Positions 7,249 to 54,315 are shown, counted from the first letter of the stretch. The stretch: DNA of 54,950 nt from Minisyncoccia bacterium (GCA_044228445.1 JBGAUV010000001.1:316495-371444), one strand, 5' to 3'. Notes: generated from the letters alone by a model not told the origin. A program made the numbers and translations.

Positions 7249-7355
7249 GCCTATAAATGGCTCTTTGTAATTGGATTATGTGTTGTTCCCGTGTGGGAAC
7301 TTTACGATTTATTTCGACATATAAGAAAGTATAGAGAGCTAGGAGGAATAAAGAC

Positions 7356-8351
7356 ATGAAAAATCTGTTCAAGTCGGTTTGGATGGCCATCTTTGTGATG
7401 GTTGTCGGTATGGTCTTCACCCACGGGCAAGCGCCAGTGGTGACCGAAAACGGCAATGCCGCGGTCACTGCGGATGGTTCAGCAGCTTCGAGGACTCTCA
7501 GTCCCACGGAAGCTGCTGAAGTCTTCAGTAGTCGACGTCATGCCCGGCTCCTTGCCGAGGGTGATGGAATCACCGTGAAGGTTTACGCCTCTGTGGGACC
7601 CCGAAAGGATGCCCCAGAATACGCAGAGTTTGCGGGAAGTTTTCTTCTCGCAGCTTTCAATGACGTTTATCCGACAGGTGAACCCTCCAAGGTTAAGTTT
7701 CTCAGTCTCGGACGAAAGTTCGAGCCCGGAAATCTTATGGGTGGATGGACGATTTGGTTTGCTACGGTAATAGAAAGGGCTGGAAAGCCCTTCATGCCGA
7801 CAAACCTGACATCGCAGATCTCATCTTCCGCTAGCGATATCTTCGGGAAGATTGAACTTTACAATAACCCCGAGAATGTCTATGGAATGACGTCGCGTGG
7901 TCAAGTCACTGACCAGAACGGCATCAAGACCCTCATTACTGGGGGAAGGTGGTCCGAGAGTCTGGTCACAAAGTTCGCTTTTCTCGGAACAGCGAACAAG
8001 ACGATGAATGACCCGACTCAATCAATCTACGACAATAACGTAAGGTGGATGATGGGATTTCCGAACTTTATCCTTGATTGCAAGTGGGCAATCAAGGAGA
8101 ATGGTGTCATCGCTGGTATTGGTGGTATCACCCTCGAAACGAGACCCTTTATCCCCGAACCACCGACCCTCGTCATTACGAGGGATGGAAACGGGATCAA
8201 GGTTTCGTCCCCAGATCTGCCCACGAGCATTTCAGCAGACGTTCTCCAGTCTCCCAACTGGAGTGTCGTGGGTACCATCACTGGTACCCAGGCCCTCGCC
8301 ATTCCGGCAGGGCAATCCATGCAGCTCTTCCGTCTCCGGGTCAACAATTGA
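7356..8351 (+). CDS. Secreted hypothetical protein (GC-rich cassette A)
   Basis: 331-aa ORF, AGGAGG 9 nt upstream, N-terminal signal peptide (MKNLFKSVWMAIFVMVVGMVFTHGQA). 35/60 GC at 7441-7500 versus about 27% in the backbone. Confidence 0.7.
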   Translation: MKNLFKSVWMAIFVMVVGMVFTHGQAPVVTENGNAAVTADGSAASRTLSPTEAAEVFSSRRHARLLAEGDGITVKVYASVGPRKDAPEYAEFAGSFLLAAFNDVYPTGEPSKVKFLSLGRKFEPGNLMGGWTIWFATVIERAGKPFMPTNLTSQISSSASDIFGKIELYNNPENVYGMTSRGQVTDQNGIKTLITGGRWSESLVTKFAFLGTANKTMNDPTQSIYDNNVRWMMGFPNFILDCKWAIKENGVIAGIGGITLETRPFIPEPPTLVITRDGNGIKVSSPDLPTSISADVLQSPNWSVVGTITGTQALAIPAGQSMQLFRLRVNN

Positions 8352-31750: not shown

Positions 31751-32317
31751 CTAATTACAGTTATTGTTTGTTCCACTAGGATTATTACAATAGTTATTAA
31801 AAGAATCACCATTATATAGTCCACCGCCACTAGTACCACCATTACCACCAGTATTTCCTGTTTCAACACTCGGAAGATTACCAAATTTAATATTGTTTAT
31901 CTGATTTGTAGGTCTAGCGTCTTGTGTTCTAAATGAATTTCTAAGTATAGCTACCAAACCCCAGATCGATAAAATAACAAATAGTCCAACAATACTATAG
32001 AAAACCATCATACCAGCAGCTTTTCTATCAGCTTCCGCATCAATAACAAAGTATCTTATTGTATTTATAATTATAAATAGTACCGCTACAGATATAGCAA
32101 TTTCTATTATCAAATTACCTATGTTTACACCTTTTTGAGCTACTTGATCTATATTTGTTATATTTCCAACTCTATTTGAGACTTGTTGAATTTCATTATT
32201 TGAGAAACCAGCAGTACCTTGAGCATTAGCAATACTTGGAGAAACAAAAGAAACTATATTAAAAAATAGTATTTGTAAAATTAAAAACGAAAACAATATG
32301 GTGATAACTCGTTTCAT
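31751..32317 (-). CDS. VirB2/TrbC-like (T4SS-type) pilin paralogue with G/N-rich tail
   Basis: Signal peptide ending ANAQG; two hydrophobic helices around a charged loop. GLFVILSIWGLVAILRNSFRT is near-identical to the product of 35627..35992. Confidence 0.6.
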   Translation of the reverse strand: MKRVITILFSFLILQILFFNIVSFVSPSIANAQGTAGFSNNEIQQVSNRVGNITNIDQVAQKGVNIGNLIIEIAISVAVLFIIINTIRYFVIDAEADRKAAGMMVFYSIVGLFVILSIWGLVAILRNSFRTQDARPTNQINNIKFGNLPSVETGNTGGNGGTSGGGLYNGDSFNNYCNNPSGTNNNCN

Positions 32318-34163: not shown

Positions 34164-34646
34164 ATGAAAAGAATAATAATTACATTTAGCTTATTTACAA
34201 TAATATTTACATTATCTGTATTTACCTTACCTAATACAAAAATATTAAACGCACAGACCCCACCTTCAAATTCAACCGGTACTGGTAATAATTCTAGTCC
34301 AAATGTAGATAGTACATTTGGTTATGGTTTAGTTAGATGTGATGGGGTTGTTAACCCAAAGGAAAAAAATAGAAATGTAACTTGTTCACTAGCTTCATTC
34401 ATTAATACAATAAATTATTTAATATATAGAGCAATAGCATTCTCAATACCTCTAGCTACTGTACTTATGGTCTATGGTGGTTTCCTATATATGACAGGGG
34501 AACAAGATAAGATTAAAACAGCAAAGAATATCTTTTTAAATGTGTGTATTGGGTTTATAATAATGGTAACGGCATGGTTTATAGTAACAACTGTAGTTGA
34601 TTGGGTAGTTGATGAAAGAACAGGTGCAACAAGCTTAATTAAATAA
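34164..34646 (+). CDS. VirB2/TrbC-like pilin paralogue
   Basis: Signal peptide ending LNAQT, Cys pair, then a two-helix hairpin (PLATVLMVYGGFLYMTGEQDKIKTAKNIFLNVCIGFIIMV). Confidence 0.55.
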   Translation: MKRIIITFSLFTIIFTLSVFTLPNTKILNAQTPPSNSTGTGNNSSPNVDSTFGYGLVRCDGVVNPKEKNRNVTCSLASFINTINYLIYRAIAFSIPLATVLMVYGGFLYMTGEQDKIKTAKNIFLNVCIGFIIMVTAWFIVTTVVDWVVDERTGATSLIK

Positions 34647-34650
34647 AATT

Positions 34651-35115
34651 ATGAAATTCAAAAAAACATCAAAGGTCATATTATTTACAATATTATTTAG
34701 TCTTATATTTTCTGGAGTATATAGTTTAGCTTTAGCTCAATCTTCAACTGGAACAGGGAATACTGATAACAATTCTACAGGTACGGGAAATAGTGGTGCT
34801 CCTGTACAGCCAATCCCTAAATTAGTAAATCCACTAAAGTTAAAATATGGTGGTAGTATAGAAAATCTCGTATTCGAACTAGTTGATATAGCAATATTTG
34901 CAGGAACAGTCGTTGCTGTATTTGTATTATTATTTATTGGTTTCAAATTTGTTATGGCTCAAGGTGACCCTGGAGCAATAAAAGATGCAAAAGCATGGCT
35001 TCTTTATGCAATAATAGGTATAGCAATACTCATAAGCTCAAAAGCAGTAGTAGAAATAATGAAAAATACACTTATTTCAGCAGGAATAGTTGAAAGAAGT
35101 TTATTTAATAGATAA
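34651..35115 (+). CDS. VirB2/TrbC-like pilin paralogue
   Basis: Signal peptide ending ALAQS; hairpin FAGTVVAVFVLLFIGFKFVMAQGDPGAIKDAKAWLLYAIIGIAILI. Confidence 0.6.
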   Translation: MKFKKTSKVILFTILFSLIFSGVYSLALAQSSTGTGNTDNNSTGTGNSGAPVQPIPKLVNPLKLKYGGSIENLVFELVDIAIFAGTVVAVFVLLFIGFKFVMAQGDPGAIKDAKAWLLYAIIGIAILISSKAVVEIMKNTLISAGIVERSLFNR

Positions 35116-35119
35116 AAAT

Positions 35120-35542
35120 ATGAAAAATATAAAAAAAATTATTTTAGTGCTAAGTTTAATATTATTACCAATATTTAGTTATGCACAAAATCTTGTTGCA
35201 GCTACAAATGTAACAGAAACAAGAACTCTTAGAAATCTAGCAGACCTATTTGTAAGTTATTTAAATATAGGTATTGAATTGATTATTGCTCTAGCTGTAG
35301 TTACATTTATCTGGAATGTGTATCTATATTTCTTTACAGAAAAGGATAGAGCTGAAGCAGGTAAGTATGTGGCGTATAGTGTAATAGGCTTCTTTGTAAT
35401 ACTTTCTCTATGGGGTTTAGTTGCTCTACTTAGAAATACTATAAATTTACCAAATCAAAGACCTAGTTTTCCATTTGGTGGTAGTACAAATTCAGGAGGT
35501 GGAAATAATGATGGAGGAGGCTTTCTTCCCGATGTACACTAG
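35120..35542 (+). CDS. VirB2/TrbC-like pilin paralogue
   Basis: Signal peptide ending SYAQN; YSVIGFFVILSLWGLVALLRNT helix shared with 31751 and 35627. ATG 35120 preferred over the track start at 35090, which overlaps the upstream gene. Confidence 0.6.
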   Translation: MKNIKKIILVLSLILLPIFSYAQNLVAATNVTETRTLRNLADLFVSYLNIGIELIIALAVVTFIWNVYLYFFTEKDRAEAGKYVAYSVIGFFVILSLWGLVALLRNTINLPNQRPSFPFGGSTNSGGGNNDGGGFLPDVH

Positions 35543-35626
35543 TTTTTCCACAATAGACTATAAACTTGTCTATCTATAGTGGTATAATTTAACTATTGGT
35601 TGTTTAATTATTATTAAATAAAAATT

Positions 35627-35992
35627 ATGAAGAAATTAATCGTTTCAGTTCTAACTTTTTTACCAGCTGTTTCTTTTGCACAAACTCTTACAAATATCGA
35701 TGATGTTGCATCAAAAGCTACAAGAATAGGTAATCTAGTTATTGAGATTGCAATATCTCTAGCAGTTATTTGGATTATTATAAATGTTATAAAGTATCTT
35801 ATAGCAGGTGGAGATGAAGATAGAGCAGCAGGAGGAAAAGCTATACTTTACGGTGTTATAGGTTTGTTTGTTATATTATCAATTTGGGGTCTAGTAGCAA
35901 TACTTACAAATTCATTCAGAACAAATAACTTTAGACCAACAAATGAGATAAATACTAATGTTCATATTCCATCTCTTCCACCAACAAATTAA
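35627..35992 (+). CDS. VirB2/TrbC-like pilin paralogue
   Basis: Signal peptide ending SFAQT; GNLVIEIAISLAVIWIIINVIKYL...GVIGLFVILSIWGLVAILTNSFRT. Confidence 0.65.
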   Translation: MKKLIVSVLTFLPAVSFAQTLTNIDDVASKATRIGNLVIEIAISLAVIWIIINVIKYLIAGGDEDRAAGGKAILYGVIGLFVILSIWGLVAILTNSFRTNNFRPTNEINTNVHIPSLPPTN

Positions 35993-36000
35993 ATAAATTT

Positions 36001-36300
36001 GTGACAGTATACGCTCAAACATTTCAAAAAGTAGCAAATAACCCAGTAGCATCATCAATTATCAATAAAATATTTGACGTAATAGTTATACCTGCAGTTG
36101 AAATTTTATTTTTAGTTGCATTATTTGTATTTGTCTTGGGTATTTTTAAGCTCATATCAAATGCTGGAGATCCTAGCGCGAGACAAGAGGGAATACAGAC
36201 AATAATATGGAGTGTTGTTGGAATGTTTATCATGGTATCTGTCTATGGAATAATTAGGTTCATTGCTTTCACACTAGGTTTGAACGATCCATTTCTCTAG
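36001..36300 (+). CDS. VirB2/TrbC-like pilin paralogue lacking a signal peptide (possibly truncated)
   Basis: GTG start. The protein begins at MTVYAQT, the position of the cleavage motif in its paralogues. A stop codon lies 14 codons upstream in frame. Confidence 0.4.
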   Translation: MTVYAQTFQKVANNPVASSIINKIFDVIVIPAVEILFLVALFVFVLGIFKLISNAGDPSARQEGIQTIIWSVVGMFIMVSVYGIIRFIAFTLGLNDPFL

Positions 36301-36320: not shown

Positions 36321-36347
36321 AAAGGGCGGACTTGTGGTCCGCCCTTT
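36321..36347. terminator. GC-rich intrinsic terminator at the 3' end of cassette B
   Basis: AAA-GGGCGGAC-TTGTG-GTCCGCCC-TTT. Confidence 0.75.
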
Positions 36348-36368
36348 CGTTAGGTTATTATAGTGAAC

Positions 36369-36743
36369 CTATCTCACTTGTTTCCGTACAAGGAAACTCA
36401 TGTCTTTGGGTGACATCACCCAGACATTTGTGACACCATTTCCCCAATCAATCTTTCGACCATTTGGGTGCATGGTGATCGAGTTGGTGAAGTCACCAAT
36501 TGTGACCACTTTGGCAAACCAAGTGACATTTTCGCCCGAAGGCTTAATATCAAATGGTCCTCCAAAGGGATCGATCTCGATCCCATACCACTTCCCAGCT
36601 GAAGCTAGGAAGTTGGTGGTGAAGGTGGAGTGTTCTGTTACTCCTCCCTCCTTTTCCTCTTTACTCGATGAGGAGAGGTGGAATATTAGGTATATTCCTA
36701 GACCGATAATGAGACCGACAATTGCAAAGGATTTGGCTTTCAT
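36369..36743 (-). CDS. Small membrane-anchored hypothetical protein (cassette B, translationally coupled to the SPFH gene)
   Basis: 124 aa with an N-terminal TM helix. AGGAGG lies 9 nt upstream, inside the SPFH gene; ATGA start/stop overlap at 36740-36743. Confidence 0.65.
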   Translation of the reverse strand: MKAKSFAIVGLIIGLGIYLIFHLSSSSKEEKEGGVTEHSTFTTNFLASAGKWYGIEIDPFGGPFDIKPSGENVTWFAKVVTIGDFTNSITMHPNGRKIDWGNGVTNVWVMSPKDMSFLVRKQVR

Positions 36744-37816
36744 ACAACCCCGCCTCCTTTCTTACTTGCCTTTGCGTTCGTATCAGCATCAACGACCGTC
36801 ACTCCTCCATTGTTTTTAATGACTTGATATCTACCGTCATTGACGGCGGTCTCTTCGATTAGCTGAGCTCGAACCTTGGCAAAGAGCTCAACAAAGGACA
36901 TACCAGTTATGAGTTTTATATCACCAACCGGCTTGCCGTCAGTATCAAAGGTGATACCCATAGCTTTAATTCTTTCTCGAACTCTCTGATTCATGGTCTC
37001 TGCATCAGCAAGCTGTGTTGCTCGCTGAGCTTCCTCAATTGCTTTGCCGTTTCTAGCATCGCGCACCGCTTGAGGAGCGACGAGTGAGATAGAAAGTTTC
37101 CGAACATCTACTCCGAGATCAGAAAGAGTTACGGTGTCTTCAGAATCATTGTGTCTAGGTACACCCCTTTCAAGGATTTCTCTGACGCTTCTACTGACCT
37201 CGTCCGGGTTAGTCTCCATATACTTGGAGTCTTTCCCGGCAGCAATTGTTTTAAGGGACTGAATGACAGATCCTTTAATAATCTCCATTACCCCTTTCTT
37301 TTGTCCTGCTTTAACATAAGAAAGAACTTTTTCACCAGCAGTTCTTTCTTTGTCATCCTTTAGGTCGACAATGAAGCCGATCGTGACTCTCCCTCCGATT
37401 GTCACATCGTCTGAACAACGAATCTCCTGAGGAACATCAACTGTCTCCTCAAAATTTACGACTTCAATTTCGATAACTTCCACGATATCAAACCAATGAA
37501 GGTCTAGAATCATCGTGAGACCTTCGCTGATTGAGGTCGTAGGATTTCCGAAAAACGTGAGGAGGAAGATATTCTTCTTCTCATCCTTTGATGACGGAGT
37601 TTTAATACCTGCAAGCATCACCACCCCTGCAACGAAGGGGATGATACCGAAGAAGAAGTGACCCCGCATAAGAGTCACCAAACCGACAATGATGAGTATT
37701 CCAGTCACACACATCAATGTGCGACTGTATTCCTCATTCATTTTGTAGCAGAGCAATCCTGCTGCTACTAATACTACTGCAGGTAGCAGTAGTATTAATG
37801 TCCTGATTTCATCCAT
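36740..37816 (-). CDS. SPFH/Band-7 (stomatin/flotillin-like) domain membrane protein (cassette B)
   Basis: Three N-terminal TM helices, a beta-rich core, then DLGVDVRKLSISLVAPQAVRDARNGKAIEEAQRATQLADAET, typical of the SPFH C-terminal helix region. Confidence 0.65.
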   Translation of the reverse strand: MDEIRTLILLLPAVVLVAAGLLCYKMNEEYSRTLMCVTGILIIVGLVTLMRGHFFFGIIPFVAGVVMLAGIKTPSSKDEKKNIFLLTFFGNPTTSISEGLTMILDLHWFDIVEVIEIEVVNFEETVDVPQEIRCSDDVTIGGRVTIGFIVDLKDDKERTAGEKVLSYVKAGQKKGVMEIIKGSVIQSLKTIAAGKDSKYMETNPDEVSRSVREILERGVPRHNDSEDTVTLSDLGVDVRKLSISLVAPQAVRDARNGKAIEEAQRATQLADAETMNQRVRERIKAMGITFDTDGKPVGDIKLITGMSFVELFAKVRAQLIEETAVNDGRYQVIKNNGGVTVVDADTNAKASKKGGGVV

Positions 37817-37896
37817 AAATTTGCTAAGTTTTCAACTCCAAGCCTCATAATCTGCACACGCAGATGACTAATACTTGGTAACGTGATCTATAATAT

Positions 37897-37924
37897 ATTA
37901 TACATGAAAATACGGTATTGTCAA
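37897..37924 (-). promoter_or_regulatory. Consensus sigma70-type promoter for the SPFH mini-operon
   Basis: Minus strand TTGACA (37924-37919), 16-nt spacer, TATAAT (37902-37897). Confidence 0.6.
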
Positions 37925-37968
37925 GGTTAGTTTAGCTATAATATCCACAAAATAAGCCGTATTTTATT

Positions 37969-38001
37969 AAAAAAAGAAAAGAGCAGTTTGTTAGACTGCT
38001 C
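37969..38001 (-). terminator. Intrinsic terminator after 38021..38524
   Basis: Minus strand GAGCAGT-CTAACAA-ACTGCTC followed by TTTTCTTTTTTT. Confidence 0.7.
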
Positions 38002-38020
38002 GATTTTGCACCCTAGAATA

Positions 38021-38524
38021 CTAGGGTTTTTTCTTGACTGTAAACTTCACAGTCAATTCAGGACCAAGAGATCTTATCCTGATACCAGTAACTTTCTCGC
38101 TACTGGTGGGTTCAACCCAAATCGGGCTGTTTGTAGTGCCTACGTTATAGGCAGCAAGGTATTCGTGATATACACGACCATTGACCCACACCGTTGCGTG
38201 TATATCGGCAGTAGTCTTTTCAAAGACAATATCTTCGTATGGGCCGACTTTGTGTTGGGTGACTGAACCGACTTCAGATGATCCCAACATATTGGTAACA
38301 AGTGTTGGGATCGACCCGGTCCAGCGCATCCCTGAAAAATCAATCCTCGCTCCGTTTCCGAGATTAATCTCGGAGACGTTCATGTTTCCACCATTTACAA
38401 AAACGGTCATAGACCCACTTTGTCCGCCAGAGAGTCCGATTACACCATTTTTTGAGTTTGTATTTGGACCAGTAAAATCATTTGGTCCTTCATTATTTTT
38501 TTTTACTGATGCATCTGTTAACAT
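38021..38524 (-). CDS. Hypothetical protein (cassette B); possibly the C-terminal part of a gene split at an A9 run
   Basis: 167-aa GC-rich ORF with no signal peptide and no Shine-Dalgarno. Overlaps 38493..39038 by 32 nt in the +1 frame. Confidence 0.55.
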   Translation of the reverse strand: MLTDASVKKNNEGPNDFTGPNTNSKNGVIGLSGGQSGSMTVFVNGGNMNVSEINLGNGARIDFSGMRWTGSIPTLVTNMLGSSEVGSVTQHKVGPYEDIVFEKTTADIHATVWVNGRVYHEYLAAYNVGTTNSPIWVEPTSSEKVTGIRIRSLGPELTVKFTVKKKP

Positions 38525-39038
38525 TTACAGTCATGGAACCATTTGCATTTGGTCCGACTGCCGACAGTTTGGCCTGGTCCTGACCTTGCGAGATTGCAAG
38601 GGGAGGTGCTGTTGCTGGTGTTGAAGTGGTGCTGGCTTTATTAGCACCATCTCCTAATGCCAGATTCTCTGCCAGCTTTTTCCATTTCTGTATTTCTTTA
38701 TCCTTTTCATTGATTAACCCCGAATGCTCTGACCTAAGGTTACCATTTATCACCCCAAGTTTTGTTATCTCACTTTCGAGACTCTTCATTCTGTTGTTGT
38801 AAACAAAGTACCCGATAACAAGGATAACAACAATGAGAATTGACTCCAAGATGATGATAATCGTCTTGGTATTTTTGTACCACTTTTCGACCACCGGTCT
38901 TTCGGGAGTTTGAGGATTGACGAGAGCAGCGGGACTTTGTGCGGGGGCGGGACTTTGTGCGGGGGCGGGACTTTGTGCGGGGGCGGGACTTTGTGCGGGG
39001 GCGGGACTTTGTGCGGGGGCGGAATCTTGTGCGTTCAT
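38493..39038 (-). CDS. Single-pass membrane protein with an N-terminal (SPAPAQ)n repeat and a coiled coil (cassette B)
   Basis: 181 aa: repeat, TM helix (TIIIILESILIVVILVIGYFVY), heptad-like KSLESEITKLG...KEIQKWKKLAENL. The stop follows AAA AAA AAA directly. Confidence 0.6.
   Translation of the reverse strand: MNAQDSAPAQSPAPAQSPAPAQSPAPAQSPAPAQSPAALVNPQTPERPVVEKWYKNTKTIIIILESILIVVILVIGYFVYNNRMKSLESEITKLGVINGNLRSEHSGLINEKDKEIQKWKKLAENLALGDGANKASTTSTPATAPPLAISQGQDQAKLSAVGPNANGSMTVNVNRCISKKK
38931..39020. repeat. Five perfect tandem copies of an 18-bp unit (GGGACTTTGTGCGGGGGC)
   Basis: Units start at 38931, 38949, 38967, 38985 and 39003. A degenerate sixth copy lies at 39021-39033. In frame, encoding SPAPAQ on the minus strand. 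Confidence 0.95.
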
Positions 39039-39115
39039 TTTAAGTTATTTCGAATTGTTTTCCCGTATTTACGTATACACACGTATACTAATACAGGTGC
39101 TGTTTTCTATTCTAC

Positions 39116-39144
39116 ATAATAGCATTGTATTTGACATATGTCAA
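39116..39144 (-). promoter_or_regulatory. Promoter of 38493..39038, with its -35 inside a 14-bp palindrome
   Basis: Minus strand TTGACA (39144-39139), 17-nt spacer, TGc-TATTAT (-10 at 39121-39116). TTGACATATGTCAA spans 39131-39144. Confidence 0.5.
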
Positions 39145-39242: not shown

Positions 39243-41261
39243 ATGACAAAAAAATATCACAGCAGACTTTGTAATAAATATAAATGGTATAAGAGTTTAC
39301 ATAACTATCCTCAAGCAAATTTATTAATGTGGTCAATATTTATATTTGTTTCAGTATTTACAGCAAATGCTTTTGTGGTATCTAGTAATTATCAGGTTTC
39401 AAGTGTTGGTGATGTTATAAATGATTTAAATAAAAGCGGAATGTCTGATCTTTTTGCTTCTACAACAAAGAAGGATTTATCAGTTGAAACTGCAAAAGCT
39501 ATCGGTAGACAGCAACAGGATAAGACAATAAAAAGATATAAAATTTCTGAAGGAAAAATTGACGTAATTAATAATCGTTCATCGCAAAATTCTCCAACGA
39601 TAATAATAGATCTTTTTGATGGACAAGTTATAACAGTTGATAGACTCAGAGTTGTTGAAAGAGGTGTTAATGACTTTACTTGGTTTGGTAAGGTAAGAGG
39701 AATACCAGATGGTCAAGTGATTTTATCGGTTACAAATGGTTATTTATCAGGATTAATCAGCTTTTCTGAACAAAATTCAAAAAAGAAATCAAGTTACAGT
39801 ATAGAACCAGTTGGAGAAAATCTTTATTCTCTTAGAGAAAATGATTTTAGTAATATTGCCGATGAACCAAGTTTGATAAATTCAAATATTTCTAAATCAG
39901 ATTTATCTTCAAATACAGTAGCTCAAACTACAACAAATATTTCAGGTGATACAGGAAGTAGTATTGATGTACTTGTACTTTACAGTAATCAATCAGCTGC
40001 AGCAACAGGTGCATATATGCAGTCACAGGCTCAATCAGCAATTGATGTTACAAATCAAGCTTATGCTAATAGCGGTTTACCAATAAGATTAAACTTAGTT
40101 CATGTTGATCAGATTTCATATAATGAAACAGGAGATTTTGTTGGAATGTTAAATGATATTACTTACGGAACAAATGGAGCACAAGTGGTCGCTCAATTAA
40201 GAAATACATATAAAGCTGATTTAGTTACTATGTTTGTTGAAAGTACTGCTTATTGTGGTATGGGTTGGGTAAATTCAAATGCTTCCCTTGGTTATACTGT
40301 AGTAAAGAGAACATGTGCATCTTCAAATTTTAGCTTAGCTCATGAAATTGGTCATAACATGGGTCTATTGCATGATCCAGCTACTGACTCTAGTTCATAT
40401 CCATATGCTTATGGACATGGTTATGTAGATCCTGGATGTCAATTTAGAACAATCATGGCTTATCCTAATTGTGGTTCTCCAAGAGTAGCATATTTTTCAA
40501 ATCCAAATATAACATACCCAGGTACAAATTCTGTTCTAGGTAATACTGATATTTCAAATAGCGTTAGAGTATTAAGTGAAAGAGCTGATACTGTATCAAA
40601 CTTTATTAATTCAAGTGGAACTATTACTTGTGTACATAAGAATCCAAGTTTAACAATAACTCCAAATGATCAGAATGGGAGTGCAGGACAGTCTTTAACT
40701 TATCAAGTAAAACTTATAAATAGTGATGATATTTCATGTCCTGCTTCATTATTTTCAATAAGTCCTAATTTACCTACTGTCTTGAGTCAAACTCCATCAT
40801 CATTTAATGTATCTTTGTCTCCTGGTGCTCAAAATACTCAATCATTTGTAATTACATCAAATGTTTCTACTCCTACTTCAGTAAATTCATTTACAGAAAC
40901 AGCAATAAATACTGGAGCTAGTTCGTATAGTTCATCAGCAAGTGCAAATTATACAATTCCTGCAGTTGATAATACTCCACCAATTGTAAGTATTACTAGT
41001 CCTACACAAGGTACTGTCTTACCAAAAAAAGGTAGTGGCAAAATAAATATTCAAGTAAGTGCAAGTGATACAAATAGCATATCAAATATCAATATTTCTA
41101 TTGATGGTGCAATATTGAAATCGTGTTCAATGGTGACCTCTTGTTCATATAGTTGGACTTATACAAAAGCAAGTGCAGGAATACATACGATTGGAGCTAC
41201 TGCAATTGATAATTCGCTTTCAAAGAATAAATCCACAACATCAATTACAGTTACTAAATAA
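39243..41261 (+). CDS. Secreted zinc metalloprotease (metzincin, reprolysin/M12B-like) with C-terminal Ig-like domains
   Basis: HEIGHNMGLLHD (HExxHxxGxxHD) zinc site, N-terminal signal anchor, C-terminal Ser/Thr-rich beta-domain repeats. Confidence 0.8.
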   Translation: MTKKYHSRLCNKYKWYKSLHNYPQANLLMWSIFIFVSVFTANAFVVSSNYQVSSVGDVINDLNKSGMSDLFASTTKKDLSVETAKAIGRQQQDKTIKRYKISEGKIDVINNRSSQNSPTIIIDLFDGQVITVDRLRVVERGVNDFTWFGKVRGIPDGQVILSVTNGYLSGLISFSEQNSKKKSSYSIEPVGENLYSLRENDFSNIADEPSLINSNISKSDLSSNTVAQTTTNISGDTGSSIDVLVLYSNQSAAATGAYMQSQAQSAIDVTNQAYANSGLPIRLNLVHVDQISYNETGDFVGMLNDITYGTNGAQVVAQLRNTYKADLVTMFVESTAYCGMGWVNSNASLGYTVVKRTCASSNFSLAHEIGHNMGLLHDPATDSSSYPYAYGHGYVDPGCQFRTIMAYPNCGSPRVAYFSNPNITYPGTNSVLGNTDISNSVRVLSERADTVSNFINSSGTITCVHKNPSLTITPNDQNGSAGQSLTYQVKLINSDDISCPASLFSISPNLPTVLSQTPSSFNVSLSPGAQNTQSFVITSNVSTPTSVNSFTETAINTGASSYSSSASANYTIPAVDNTPPIVSITSPTQGTVLPKKGSGKINIQVSASDTNSISNINISIDGAILKSCSMVTSCSYSWTYTKASAGIHTIGATAIDNSLSKNKSTTSITVTK

Positions 41262-45386: not shown

Positions 45387-46358
45387 TTAGCGCTTTGTGA
45401 AGAAAACCACATAGCTTTCTTCCTCAAGGAAACCTGAATTGTCTTCCTTGTCGAAGACCAAAACGCCTTCAGTTTCCAACTCTTCCGTCTTTTCAAATTT
45501 CAGACGGTTTAGAGTGGTTGAACCTAGGGAAACATCCGGAACATCCAGGGAGACATCCTTGAACTCGAAGAACTGGTGTTCCTTGTGTTCACTGAAAGCC
45601 TTACAAGTGAATATGGTCGAGTCTTCCGGTCTCTCAACAAGACCTTTTTTATTGGTCAGGATTTTTTTGAGATCCTTGACACTCACCCTCCGGTTTACTC
45701 TGATAACCCGGAGTTTGTATGACCATTCCGAGATTGCTACCGACGAGAGTTCTGACGTAATATACAGTCTCACGTCCTCCGCGATTCGTGGCCAAGCGAC
45801 GTCCATGAAACTGCAGACGATTTCCCATTCTCGACATTCTCCTGCTTCATACGCTGGCCGGTTTTCCTTCAGCCACTTTTTAAGTGACCTCATCGTATCA
45901 ATGTCGCCAATGTAATAGTCAGATCGGTGATGATTGTCATTACCGTTCACAATGCGCAAGGCTTCATATAGAGGATCAAGTCTGGATTTAATACCTGTTG
46001 AGATCTCTCTTATATAAACCCATAGATATTTCACCAACATTAATTGCGCTATTACGATCAGTAATGCTACTACTAGCAATGTAATTGTTGTTGGCGTCTT
46101 TTCTACTCGATAAATTTCATGCGAAAAAAATACTAGTAATGATACAGATGTTATTACGGCAATAATGTGCACAATAAACATTGCGCATTGATCAAACATG
46201 GCATTCCAGTGCCAAGCTAAACCACCGATCCTGTACTCCAGGGAATTCCCGATCCTTCCACTGTACACCAACCTCGGGAACTTCCCGAAGAAGATTGAGA
46301 GTACCACCATTTTGAACCACCTAATAAAGTGGTCCAAGTGTTTGCTTACAATGTTCAT
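45387..46358 (-). CDS. Two-TM hypothetical protein with a roughly 200-aa soluble C-terminal domain (GC-rich cassette C)
   Basis: 323-aa ORF; GGAGAT Shine-Dalgarno 6 nt upstream. Hydrophobic helices FIVHIIAVITSVSLLVFF and ITLLVVALLIVIAQLMLV. 31/60 GC at 45781-45840. Confidence 0.65.
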   Translation of the reverse strand: MNIVSKHLDHFIRWFKMVVLSIFFGKFPRLVYSGRIGNSLEYRIGGLAWHWNAMFDQCAMFIVHIIAVITSVSLLVFFSHEIYRVEKTPTTITLLVVALLIVIAQLMLVKYLWVYIREISTGIKSRLDPLYEALRIVNGNDNHHRSDYYIGDIDTMRSLKKWLKENRPAYEAGECREWEIVCSFMDVAWPRIAEDVRLYITSELSSVAISEWSYKLRVIRVNRRVSVKDLKKILTNKKGLVERPEDSTIFTCKAFSEHKEHQFFEFKDVSLDVPDVSLGSTTLNRLKFEKTEELETEGVLVFDKEDNSGFLEEESYVVFFTKR

Positions 46359-53193: not shown

Positions 53194-54315
53194 TCAGTAG
53201 ACTGGATTTTCCGTAGCACCCTTGCCGGGGTTGGGGTTGTCTGCAGGTGATTGAACCCACGGTGGCCAGACCGTAATAATCTGGTATTCACCTGGATCAA
53301 GACTGATCTCATACCCAGAGGGAACTTCACGATCTGTTTGAGTTCCTTTATCATCAAGGGAGTGGATCAGTACCTTCGTTGGGTACACCATCATGTCTGA
53401 GTTCCCCCAGACGCCAGCACCGAGTCGCTTATGGCTAATGGTGATCCCTTTCTTAACCGTGAGGTCAAGAAGGGGAAAATTACCGTAAACTGTTTCATTG
53501 TCCACATAGAACTTCCTATCGTGAACAAGTGTGTCGGTAAGCGATATAACAACGCCACCCTCAAGCTTTCCAAGATTCGTAAAGATATTGCGACCCTGGA
53601 AAAATTGCCCGGTAGACAAATTCCAAGATGAGAGGTGTTTTCCGTTATGAAGAAGAATATTCCTTGTTGCTCCAGCCATATCGGAGGAAAGAAAGACAAG
53701 TGAATGCCCCTCCTTTCCTTGCTGAACGTCGATTTCAACATCATTCGGCCAACCAACGAGCTTTGCGCTCGTATTGTCACCCACATCCACCAGCACATTT
53801 GCCGGTAAATACATCCATGTTTGGAACGGATCGGCGACAAGATCGCCACCCTTTCCTTCGTGGATGTTTGACCAACCTGATCCTTCGAGGATGACTTGGT
53901 TGGCTGAGTTGTAAACCGTGATATACGTGGTAACGAAATAGTAATCGTTACCAGTGTAGTCAGTCGGTTGAGGGACTACCTCAGCTGACATACCGACGTG
54001 CCGGAGGGCATCCGACAGCTGGGTAAATGACCCAGCAATATTGTAACCGTTTTGAGTCAGCCACTTTCGGTCCAAGTTGATTGGACCTAAGTCTTGGAAC
54101 AAACTCTTTCCCGAAAACGAGATCGACACATGGTCGATCTGTTGCAGGAGAAATTGTGTAACCTTCTGGTTGCCTTGAGCATAGACCTCGATCGGAACGA
54201 TCGGGGGTCCACCAACAGGCGGGTGATCTCCCGGTTCAGGTGTTGCCTGAACAGTGATGTTGAACCAAACCATGATCATTCCGATGATCATAGCGACGAG
54301 CTTGTTGTTCTTCAT
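53194..54315 (-). CDS. Secreted hypothetical protein (cassette E)
   Basis: 373 aa; AGAGGA Shine-Dalgarno 5 nt upstream; signal peptide MKNNKLVAMIIGMIMVWFNITVQA. 30/60 GC at 53701-53760. Confidence 0.7.
   Translation of the reverse strand: MKNNKLVAMIIGMIMVWFNITVQATPEPGDHPPVGGPPIVPIEVYAQGNQKVTQFLLQQIDHVSISFSGKSLFQDLGPINLDRKWLTQNGYNIAGSFTQLSDALRHVGMSAEVVPQPTDYTGNDYYFVTTYITVYNSANQVILEGSGWSNIHEGKGGDLVADPFQTWMYLPANVLVDVGDNTSAKLVGWPNDVEIDVQQGKEGHSLVFLSSDMAGATRNILLHNGKHLSSWNLSTGQFFQGRNIFTNLGKLEGGVVISLTDTLVHDRKFYVDNETVYGNFPLLDLTVKKGITISHKRLGAGVWGNSDMMVYPTKVLIHSLDDKGTQTDREVPSGYEISLDPGEYQIITVWPPWVQSPADNPNPGKGATENPVY

Follow-up and report, generated by a model that had tools for sequence, protein, structure and literature searches.

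Membrane scaffolds of the SPFH superfamily are widespread but poorly understood. The described arrangements closest to the locus reported here are the SPFH-NfeD operons, exemplified by qmcA-ybbJ of E. coli, nfeD2(yuaF)-floT of B. subtilis and PH1510/PH1511 of P. horikoshii, whose classical NfeD partner combines three hydrophobic segments with a five-strand beta-barrel (Hinderhofer et al. 2009, PMC2636767). Here, we analysed a stretch of 54,950 nucleotides from a Minisyncoccia bacterium (GCA_044228445.1 JBGAUV010000001.1:316495-371444), referred to as the window, with a focus on a GC-rich block at positions 36321-39144, in the following called the cassette. It carries a gene for a putative divergent SPFH/Band 7-superfamily membrane scaffold (36740..37816, minus strand, 358 aa), the coupled gene of a partner protein (36369..36743, minus strand, 124 aa) and a third gene, X, which is split in this genome as assembled. 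We conclude that the block is a vertically inherited, clade-conserved and native envelope cluster of a Candidate Phyla Radiation (CPR)/Patescibacteria lineage and not a foreign insert, and that it contains a variant of the SPFH-plus-partner operon that is confined to a CPR clade and uses a partner other than NfeD.

Comparison with described SPFH systems

Similar to the SPFH-NfeD operons, the cassette encodes a membrane-anchored SPFH protein in one operon with a small membrane protein bearing a soluble all-beta domain, and C-terminal helices are predicted to follow the SPFH domain. The partner gene lies downstream and overlaps the SPFH gene at an ATGA motif, a coupling visible in the sequence and already pointed out in an earlier, sequence-only reading of the same DNA. 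In contrast to NfeD, the partner has one transmembrane (TM) helix instead of three, and its domain is predicted to be an outside-facing 8-strand beta-sandwich and not a 5-strand OB-fold. As it also gave no Pfam match to NfeD (PF01957) and Foldseek aligned it with beta-sandwich and jelly-roll domains, with no NfeD protein among the top 50 PDB matches listed, an assignment as NfeD was rejected. Compared with the proteins of those operons, the cassette SPFH protein is moreover so divergent that the Band_7 model does not recognise it.

Among the best structural matches of the modelled SPFH protein are the HflK/C-FtsH cage (PDB 7vhq, 9cz2) and the cages of prohibitin and flotillin (9o9z, 9bq2), with which it shares the predicted order of membrane anchor, SPFH domain, long helix and C-terminal beta strand; for prohibitin, a weak sequence-profile match exists in addition. 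Unlike the HflK/C-FtsH system, the cassette holds a single SPFH gene and no paralogous pair, no FtsH gene is adjacent, and neither the cluster nor the loci of its relatives contain a gene for an AAA protease. Unlike the periplasmic HflK/C, the cassette protein has two to three hydrophobic N-terminal helices, and its charges suggest an SPFH domain in the cytoplasm. Oligomerisation of the cassette protein is predicted by analogy with these cage-forming proteins.

VirB2-like pilin arrays are a recognised feature of Patescibacteria/CPR, and one was reported as essential in a cultivated Saccharibacterium (10.1101/2025.01.22.634366). The invariant neighbour of the cassette is such an array, while the cassette genes themselves encode neither pilins nor known parts of a type IV secretion system (T4SS). 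A keyword search of the text of that study gave 0 occurrences of SPFH, and a full-text literature search for SPFH and Patescibacteria returned nothing relevant. As far as we found, SPFH scaffolds and their partners have thus not previously been described in the reduced, host-dependent CPR bacteria, and a conserved SPFH trio beside VirB2-like pilin arrays offers a concrete candidate for the organisation of envelope machinery in tiny cells.

Predicted structures of the SPFH protein and its partner

Only ten close relatives of the 358-aa protein were retrieved among 5.8 billion clusters, and an AlphaFold2 (AF2) model built on these sequences reached a predicted local distance difference test (pLDDT) score of 61. 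The model consists of three N-terminal helices (residues 2-25, 29-50 and 54-70), an alpha/beta domain and a C-terminal part with a 37-residue helix (249-285), a second helix (308-327) and terminal strands (330-343); a conserved NDGRYQV..N.GG motif also lies in the C-terminal part of the protein. Hydropathy analysis located two hydrophobic segments (6-24 and 34-52) and, in the homologue P0005, a third one (53-71), and both the model and the hydropathy profile predict the N-terminal membrane anchor expected of the SPFH superfamily. The top 29 Foldseek PDB matches of the model all belonged to this superfamily and were led by the major vault protein (E = 3.7e-4) and HflK/C (7vhq, E = 5.5e-4), while further matches comprised the SPFH domains of prohibitin, flotillin and stomatin. 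Target-normalised TM-scores amounted to 0.65-0.72 for stomatin SPFH domains and 0.60 for flotillin-2, so that AF2 and Foldseek agree on an SPFH alpha/beta fold within the moderate confidence of the model.

A profile search of 1.84 billion representatives extended the family to 86 members, and Pfam Band_7 was matched by 17 of the 81 aligned members at E <= 0.01, with a best value of 5e-15. PDB sequence searches with the single protein and with a 10-sequence profile returned no SPFH match; the 81-sequence profile gave a weak but nearly full-length match to prohibitin (9urz_B, E = 0.0034). Together with the structural matches, these results support the prediction that the 358-aa product is an SPFH-fold protein, as the sequence-only reading had proposed. 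Since the protein lies outside the curated Band_7 model, it represents a divergent branch of the superfamily. Its charge pattern suggests that the SPFH domain is cytoplasmic.

For the 124-aa partner, AF2 (pLDDT 72) predicted a signal-anchor TM helix at the N-terminus and a domain built as a beta-sandwich of eight strands. Positive charges precede the helix and an acidic stretch follows it, a distribution which suggests that the domain faces outwards. In all relatives examined, the partner gene stands immediately 3' of the SPFH gene. The check by Foldseek that had been recommended for all products was informative for the SPFH protein, but retrieved only generic beta-sandwich and jelly-roll domains among the PDB matches listed for the partner. 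A comparison of the partner with viral structures was not informative either, as it matched a single uncharacterised phage protein (E = 1e-4) besides beta-sandwiches of a generic kind. Homology of the partner domain with the C-terminal domain of X was considered and rejected (hhalign probability 0.5%).

Gene X

An open reading frame (ORF) scan recovered four minus-strand ORFs at exactly the coordinates given in the sequence-only reading, which had counted them as four genes. Two of them, 38493..39038 and 38021..38524 (both minus strand), are halves of the single gene X, which is intact at 226-395 aa in relatives, and the four ORFs are consequently three genes: X, the SPFH gene and the partner gene. 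The 5' half (181-aa ORF) aligns with the N-terminal part of intact homologues of 265-291 aa; its product has an N-terminal (SPAPAQ)n tail, a single TM helix at residues 60-78, a coiled coil and a linker rich in S, T and P, whereas the 3' half (167-aa ORF) encodes a conserved C-terminal beta-rich domain of ~130 aa. A full-length X protein is thus ordered as variable proline-rich N-terminal tail, TM helix, coiled coil, S/T/P-rich linker and conserved beta-rich domain. The expectation that the products are envelope-associated is supported by the predicted membrane anchors; 38021..38524, which had been set apart as a possible exception, encodes the C-terminal part, with the ectodomain, of the split membrane protein.

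The N-terminal repeats are encoded by a tandem repeat (38929..39033, minus strand) of 18 nt x 5.8 copies, a unit that is a multiple of 3. The repeat is unique to this genome, and the X proteins of relatives carry other N-terminal tails. The split itself coincides with a 140-nt patch (38376..38515, minus strand) that is 100% identical to L005, one of the relatives introduced below, and absent from L006, L008 and L012; outside of the patch the identity of X is ~85%, and no exact match to L006 is longer than 37 nt. The patch duplicates a GSMTVxVN motif and splits the gene through its out-of-frame 5' junction. Removal of one base from an A9 tract within the patch (38496-38504) would restore an ORF of 338 aa, as might be expected for phase variation; the identical tract is, however, in frame in L005. 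The break in X is therefore more probably due to the patch junction, created by recombination or by chimeric assembly, than to a change in tract length.

Gene X also contains a 26-nt palindrome, CGTTTCCGAGATTAATCTCGGAGACG, at 38353-38378. The X copy of L005 (near 8524) is broken by a 32-nt deletion that removes exactly this palindrome. Two lineages thus carry independent disruptions of X. A search of the PDB with a profile of the X family found nothing, and Pfam, NCBIfam, PHROGs and PADLOC gave nothing credible for any of the four ORFs; PHROG had no matches for three of them, and matches to the 181-aa ORF were low-complexity or TM/coiled-coil noise.

Conservation of the locus in relatives

The window has a GC content of ~33% and, because it contains housekeeping genes (MurJ, LepA, TsaD, GyrA, IF2, RbfA, ClpB and Alr) and nine tRNAs, represents chromosomal DNA. 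Related metagenome-assembled genomes are labelled Saccharibacteria or Woesebacteria; the loci of relatives are coded L001, L005 and so forth. In every relative that could be traced, gyrA, a methyltransferase gene, a solute-binding protein (SBP) gene and four to six VirB2-like T4SS_pilin genes are followed, in convergent orientation to the pilin array, by a ~125-aa gene, the SPFH gene and X. The trio faces the T4SS_pilin array in L001, L006-L012, L015, L017, L019 and L020/21; L005 also contains the trio on a contig that stops short of the array. Beyond X, a tRNA cluster or rbfA follows wherever contigs extend that far. This layout holds at SPFH identities of 90%, 87%, 82%, 52%, 49%, 31% and ~23%.

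The trio thus occurs together in every relative examined, and the reservation attached to the sequence-only reading, namely that its genes might never co-occur elsewhere, does not apply. The same reading had considered the block an insert of foreign composition and proposed a comparison of presence and absence in sister genomes. Such a comparison gave no sign of an insertion: the same chromosomal site is occupied in all relatives examined, including those with SPFH identities of 23-50%, the block is GC-rich at third codon positions in all AT-rich relatives (see below), and neither an integrase or recombinase gene nor att-like direct repeats bound it. Replacement of the whole allele from a GC-rich donor was likewise considered and found no support, as cassette and flanks show the same order of relatedness to the window (L006 > L005 > L012 > L001) and the closest homologue that comes from a GC-rich lineage shares only 31% identity.

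Transcription signals and leader RNA elements

The genes and signals support a grouping into two transcription units, with X in unit 1 and the SPFH and partner genes in unit 2, in line with the sequence-only reading. On scanning, the promoter of unit 1 (39116..39144, minus strand; TTGACA-N17-TATTAT, with a TG before the -10 element) matched 11/12 consensus positions and that of unit 2 (37897..37924, minus strand; TTGACA-N16-TATAAT) 12/12. TTGAC and the -10 region of the former are kept in an alignment of seven relatives, and CCTTGAC...ATGTATAATA of the latter is unchanged in 6/6 aligned relatives, among them L001 and L015, in which the neighbouring coding DNA is no longer alignable. The scan also located intrinsic terminators for unit 1 (37981..38001, minus strand) and unit 2 (36321..36347, minus strand), the latter with an 11-bp GC-rich stem (-20.9 kcal/mol, z = -5.7). 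The unit 1 stem shows compensatory changes, being GAGCAGT/ACTGCTC in the window, GAGCGGA/TCCGCTC in L012 and AGAGGGTG/CACCCTCT in L001, and the conserved unit 2 stem differs in sequence in L001 and L015, yet still pairs. Both promoters and both terminators are kept in six relatives. Although promoter-like sites in the region are no more frequent than in shuffled sequences (13 vs 13.0), we regard these signals as more than chance because the promoters are conserved and the terminator stems are maintained by compensatory substitutions. As a separate observation, nearly identical consensus promoters (CCTTGACA...TTCATGTATAAT) lie upstream of gene X in distant relatives (L017 1730-1930, L020 1660-1840) and of the SPFH gene in the clade of the window, a likeness in sequence which suggests a strongly conserved type of strong promoter in the lineage.

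Both leaders, which have ACC..GTATTAGT in common, can form a stem-loop in which a perfect 6-bp hairpin with a GUGU loop caps a longer stem. In unit 1 (39062..39097, minus strand; -14.4 kcal/mol, z = -2.6), the outer stem CCUGUAUU/AAUACGGG encloses the hairpin GUAUAC-GUGU-GUAUAC (39073-39088), and the stem covaries among relatives, for example as CAAGCAT-ATGT-GTGCTTG in L001. In unit 2 (37838..37878, minus strand; -18.3 kcal/mol, z = -2.3), the outer stem CCAAGU/GCUUGG encloses AUCUGC-GUGU-GCAGAU (37850-37865). Three perfect hairpins of 6 bp that enclose a GTGT loop are present in the window, compared with 0.17 expected from shuffles (maximum 2 in 200), the third one lying at 7285-7300 (plus strand) in the leader of a gene at 7356-8351. 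All three are found in sense-strand leaders of orphan genes with G+C-rich third codon positions, 43-65 nt before the start codon, and their stems differ in sequence and covary in relatives, G-U pairs included. The hairpin is absent upstream of two further GC-rich genes (C and D, described below) and of all other genes of the window, as well as in the distant relatives L017, L019 and L020, and Rfam gave only sub-threshold noise within the block. The GUGU stem-loop may be a common leader RNA element.

Base composition and evolutionary rate

The compositional contrast described in the sequence-only reading was readily reproduced: the block has 43.7% GC compared with 30.3% in the pilin array and 31.6% in a metalloprotease gene on its other side, with 34/60 at positions 37021-37080. 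The excess is an effect of the third codon position, where the G+C fraction (GC3) amounts to 0.39-0.50 in the block and 0.11-0.25 in ordinary genes of the window, and the spacer within the cassette is AT-rich (0.32). The cassette genes of every AT-rich relative show a GC3 of 0.41-0.57 against 0.10-0.25 in flanking genes, while in the GC-richer L017 and L019 the cassette is not compositionally distinct. As a practical warning, a GC-rich block in such genomes is therefore not evidence of horizontal transfer.

The cassette also evolves faster than its surroundings. Between the window and L006, flanking proteins are 94-100% and cassette proteins 72-89% identical, the DNA identity dropping from ~95% to ~85% across the GC-rich block; with L001, the corresponding values are 53-97% and 31-49%. 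Ratios of nonsynonymous to synonymous substitution rates (dN/dS) of 0.05-0.25, with 0.05-0.08 for the SPFH gene and 0.14-0.25 for the 3' half of X, indicate purifying selection and hence functional genes. Base usage at third positions of the cassette is nearly even (A 0.27, C 0.22, G 0.20, T 0.31), and the codons CGA and CGG, absent from core genes, and ACG and CTC, rare in them, are all used freely; the core genes S1, IF2, ClpB and GyrA have a GC3 of 0.15-0.18. Parsimony polarised the third-position changes of the SPFH gene into 46 from strong (G/C) to weak (A/T) bases (S>W) and 28 in the reverse direction (W>S), whereas the bias of core genes would predict ~4.3:1 (p = 1e-4), a rough estimate in view of saturated outgroups. 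These data suggest that some force keeps GC3 higher than the equilibrium of the genome. Translational selection in favour of C-ending codons was rejected as an explanation, since G3 is raised as much as C3 and GC3 is low in the core genes named above.

The block had been singled out as a compositional outlier, but it is not unique. At least three more orphan genes, at 7356-8351 (plus strand), 45387-46358 (minus strand) and 53194-54315 (minus strand, with GC-rich DNA running on to ~54500), show the same anomaly (GC3 0.49-0.58). They gave no match in Pfam, PHROG, NCBIfam or PADLOC and are paralogues neither of one another nor of the cassette genes. Two of these could be traced (in L023 and L005), where they are syntenic and GC3-rich with identities of 52% and 40%, their flanks being far more conserved. 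The elevated GC3 may be caused by GC-biased conversion at recombination hot spots, by selection on mRNA or by locus-specific mutation. If the anomaly indeed reflects biased gene conversion or targeted diversification of loci for surface proteins, it would provide a useful marker for host-interaction genes in uncultivated CPR genomes.

Proposed function and alternative explanations

Taken together, we consider it probable that the cluster is a native envelope gene cluster of this CPR/Patescibacteria lineage built around a divergent SPFH scaffold. By analogy with HflK/C, prohibitin, flotillin and stomatin, the SPFH protein would oligomerise via its C-terminal helices, forming a ring or cage that is attached to the membrane and bounds a microdomain. 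The co-translated beta-sandwich protein would be its likeliest partner or client and fill the operon slot that NfeD holds in classical SPFH operons, and X would add a third, more variable single-pass envelope component; unit 2 would be driven by its conserved consensus sigma-70 promoter. With a cytoplasmic SPFH domain and outward beta domains, as the charge patterns suggest, any contact between these proteins would have to be made through the membrane helices.

Several observations weigh against this interpretation. The SPFH protein of the window falls below every Pfam and NCBIfam threshold, with no Pfam family at E <= 0.1, and its link to Band_7 (PF01145) is transitive, via profile relatives. 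The AF2 model is of moderate confidence (pLDDT 61, pTM 0.38), and the highly conserved residues 69-118 are modelled as disordered. As neither Pfam nor Foldseek detects a similarity of the partner to NfeD, the analogy to SPFH-NfeD operons is one of operon position. Moreover, all relatives share the same wider synteny, so that co-occurrence cannot distinguish functional linkage from plain vertical inheritance, and a native cluster as such leaves the GC3-rich composition unexplained.

A refinement of this interpretation, which we regard as possible but rather unlikely, treats the cassette as an accessory module of the adjacent VirB2-like pilin or T4SS-like apparatus, in which an SPFH ring would organise a membrane patch for the assembly or storage of pilin paralogues and both single-pass beta-domain proteins would be surface components of the apparatus. 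The cassette adjoins a T4SS_pilin array in every relative with a sufficiently long contig, even at ~23% SPFH identity, and arrays of this kind are recognised in CPR and essential in one case (10.1101/2025.01.22.634366). In Agrobacterium, T4SS components co-purify with SPFH-marked detergent-resistant membranes, but the SPFH proteins are not needed for T4SS localisation or function (PMC8656257). Furthermore, the array and the cassette are convergent and separately terminated, no virB4 gene lies within the window, and the conservation of gyrA, the methyltransferase gene and the SBP gene alongside means that the adjacency may be plain synteny. The horizontally acquired defence or phage-exclusion cassette envisaged in the sequence-only reading is, in turn, highly improbable. 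Its atypical composition, compact build with own promoters and terminators, membrane-protein products and position ~2 kb from a tRNA cluster would fit a mobile element; however, synteny down to ~23% SPFH identity largely refutes it, as the same site is occupied in all relatives examined and the cassette does not stand out in the GC-richer ones. In addition to the missing integrase and att-like repeats and the lack of PHROG matches for three of the four ORFs, PADLOC returned no credible match (the sole hit aligned a low-complexity N-terminal tail with PD-T4-6 at 20 bits), and searches of phage records, plasmid records and IMG/VR contigs retrieved no relatives of the SPFH protein, nor did a search of IMG/VR contigs retrieve any of X.

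A further explanation, to which we likewise assign a low probability, shifts the interest from SPFH biochemistry to an evolutionary regime: the cassette would belong to a group of envelope loci that face the host and evolve rapidly. The GC3 of these loci would be held up either by selection or by frequent recombination accompanied by GC-biased gene conversion, and they may be co-regulated through the shared GUGU leader stem-loop. This explanation is consistent with the four loci within 55 kb that have a GC3 of 0.39-0.58, near-uniform third positions and codons never used by core genes, with the finding that every traceable locus has kept its synteny and high GC3 in relatives and has diverged more than its flanks, and with the 140-nt patch identical to L005, which points to recent recombination. 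The ratio of 46 S>W to 28 W>S changes in place of the 4.3:1 predicted from core mutation bias (p = 1e-4) also speaks for it, but the polarisation is rough owing to saturated outgroups, and much of the higher synonymous divergence would be expected anyway from G/C sites mutating faster under AT-biased mutation. Likewise, three GUGU hairpins, all in leaders of GC3-rich genes, stand against 0.17 expected, yet loci C and D and the distant relatives lack the hairpin, and the congruence of the cassette phylogeny with that of the flanks gives no sign of wholesale allele import. Combining several of these elements, one may speculate, with more doubt still, about a class of loci that has so far not been described in AT-rich Patescibacteria, consisting of orphan envelope genes at fixed positions, far from compositional equilibrium, evolving faster than their flanks under purifying selection and in some cases equipped with a GUGU leader. 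Such an evolutionary and regulatory regime would be specific to loci for host-facing surface components and involve either targeted diversification or GC-biased conversion at recombination hot spots, and the SPFH ring would here organise a membrane patch for the adjacent VirB2-like pilin apparatus.

Neighbouring genes

The spot that varies between relatives is not the cassette but the position beyond X. In the window, it holds an M12/reprolysin-like metalloprotease gene (39243-41261, plus strand) with a Big_7 domain and a host-like AT-rich composition, which was found only here and in L005. In L012 and L001, X is directly followed by the tRNA cluster, and at this spot L006 carries an unrelated gene of 212 aa. 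On the opposite side, the pilin array (34164-36300) consists of five to six PF18895 paralogues. Upstream of the methyltransferase gene, a 188-aa gene (31751-32317, minus strand) has ~70% DNA identity over ~265 nt to the fourth pilin gene (35690-35952) and, judged by this similarity, looks like a further VirB2-like pilin paralogue in opposite orientation that was not flagged by Pfam.

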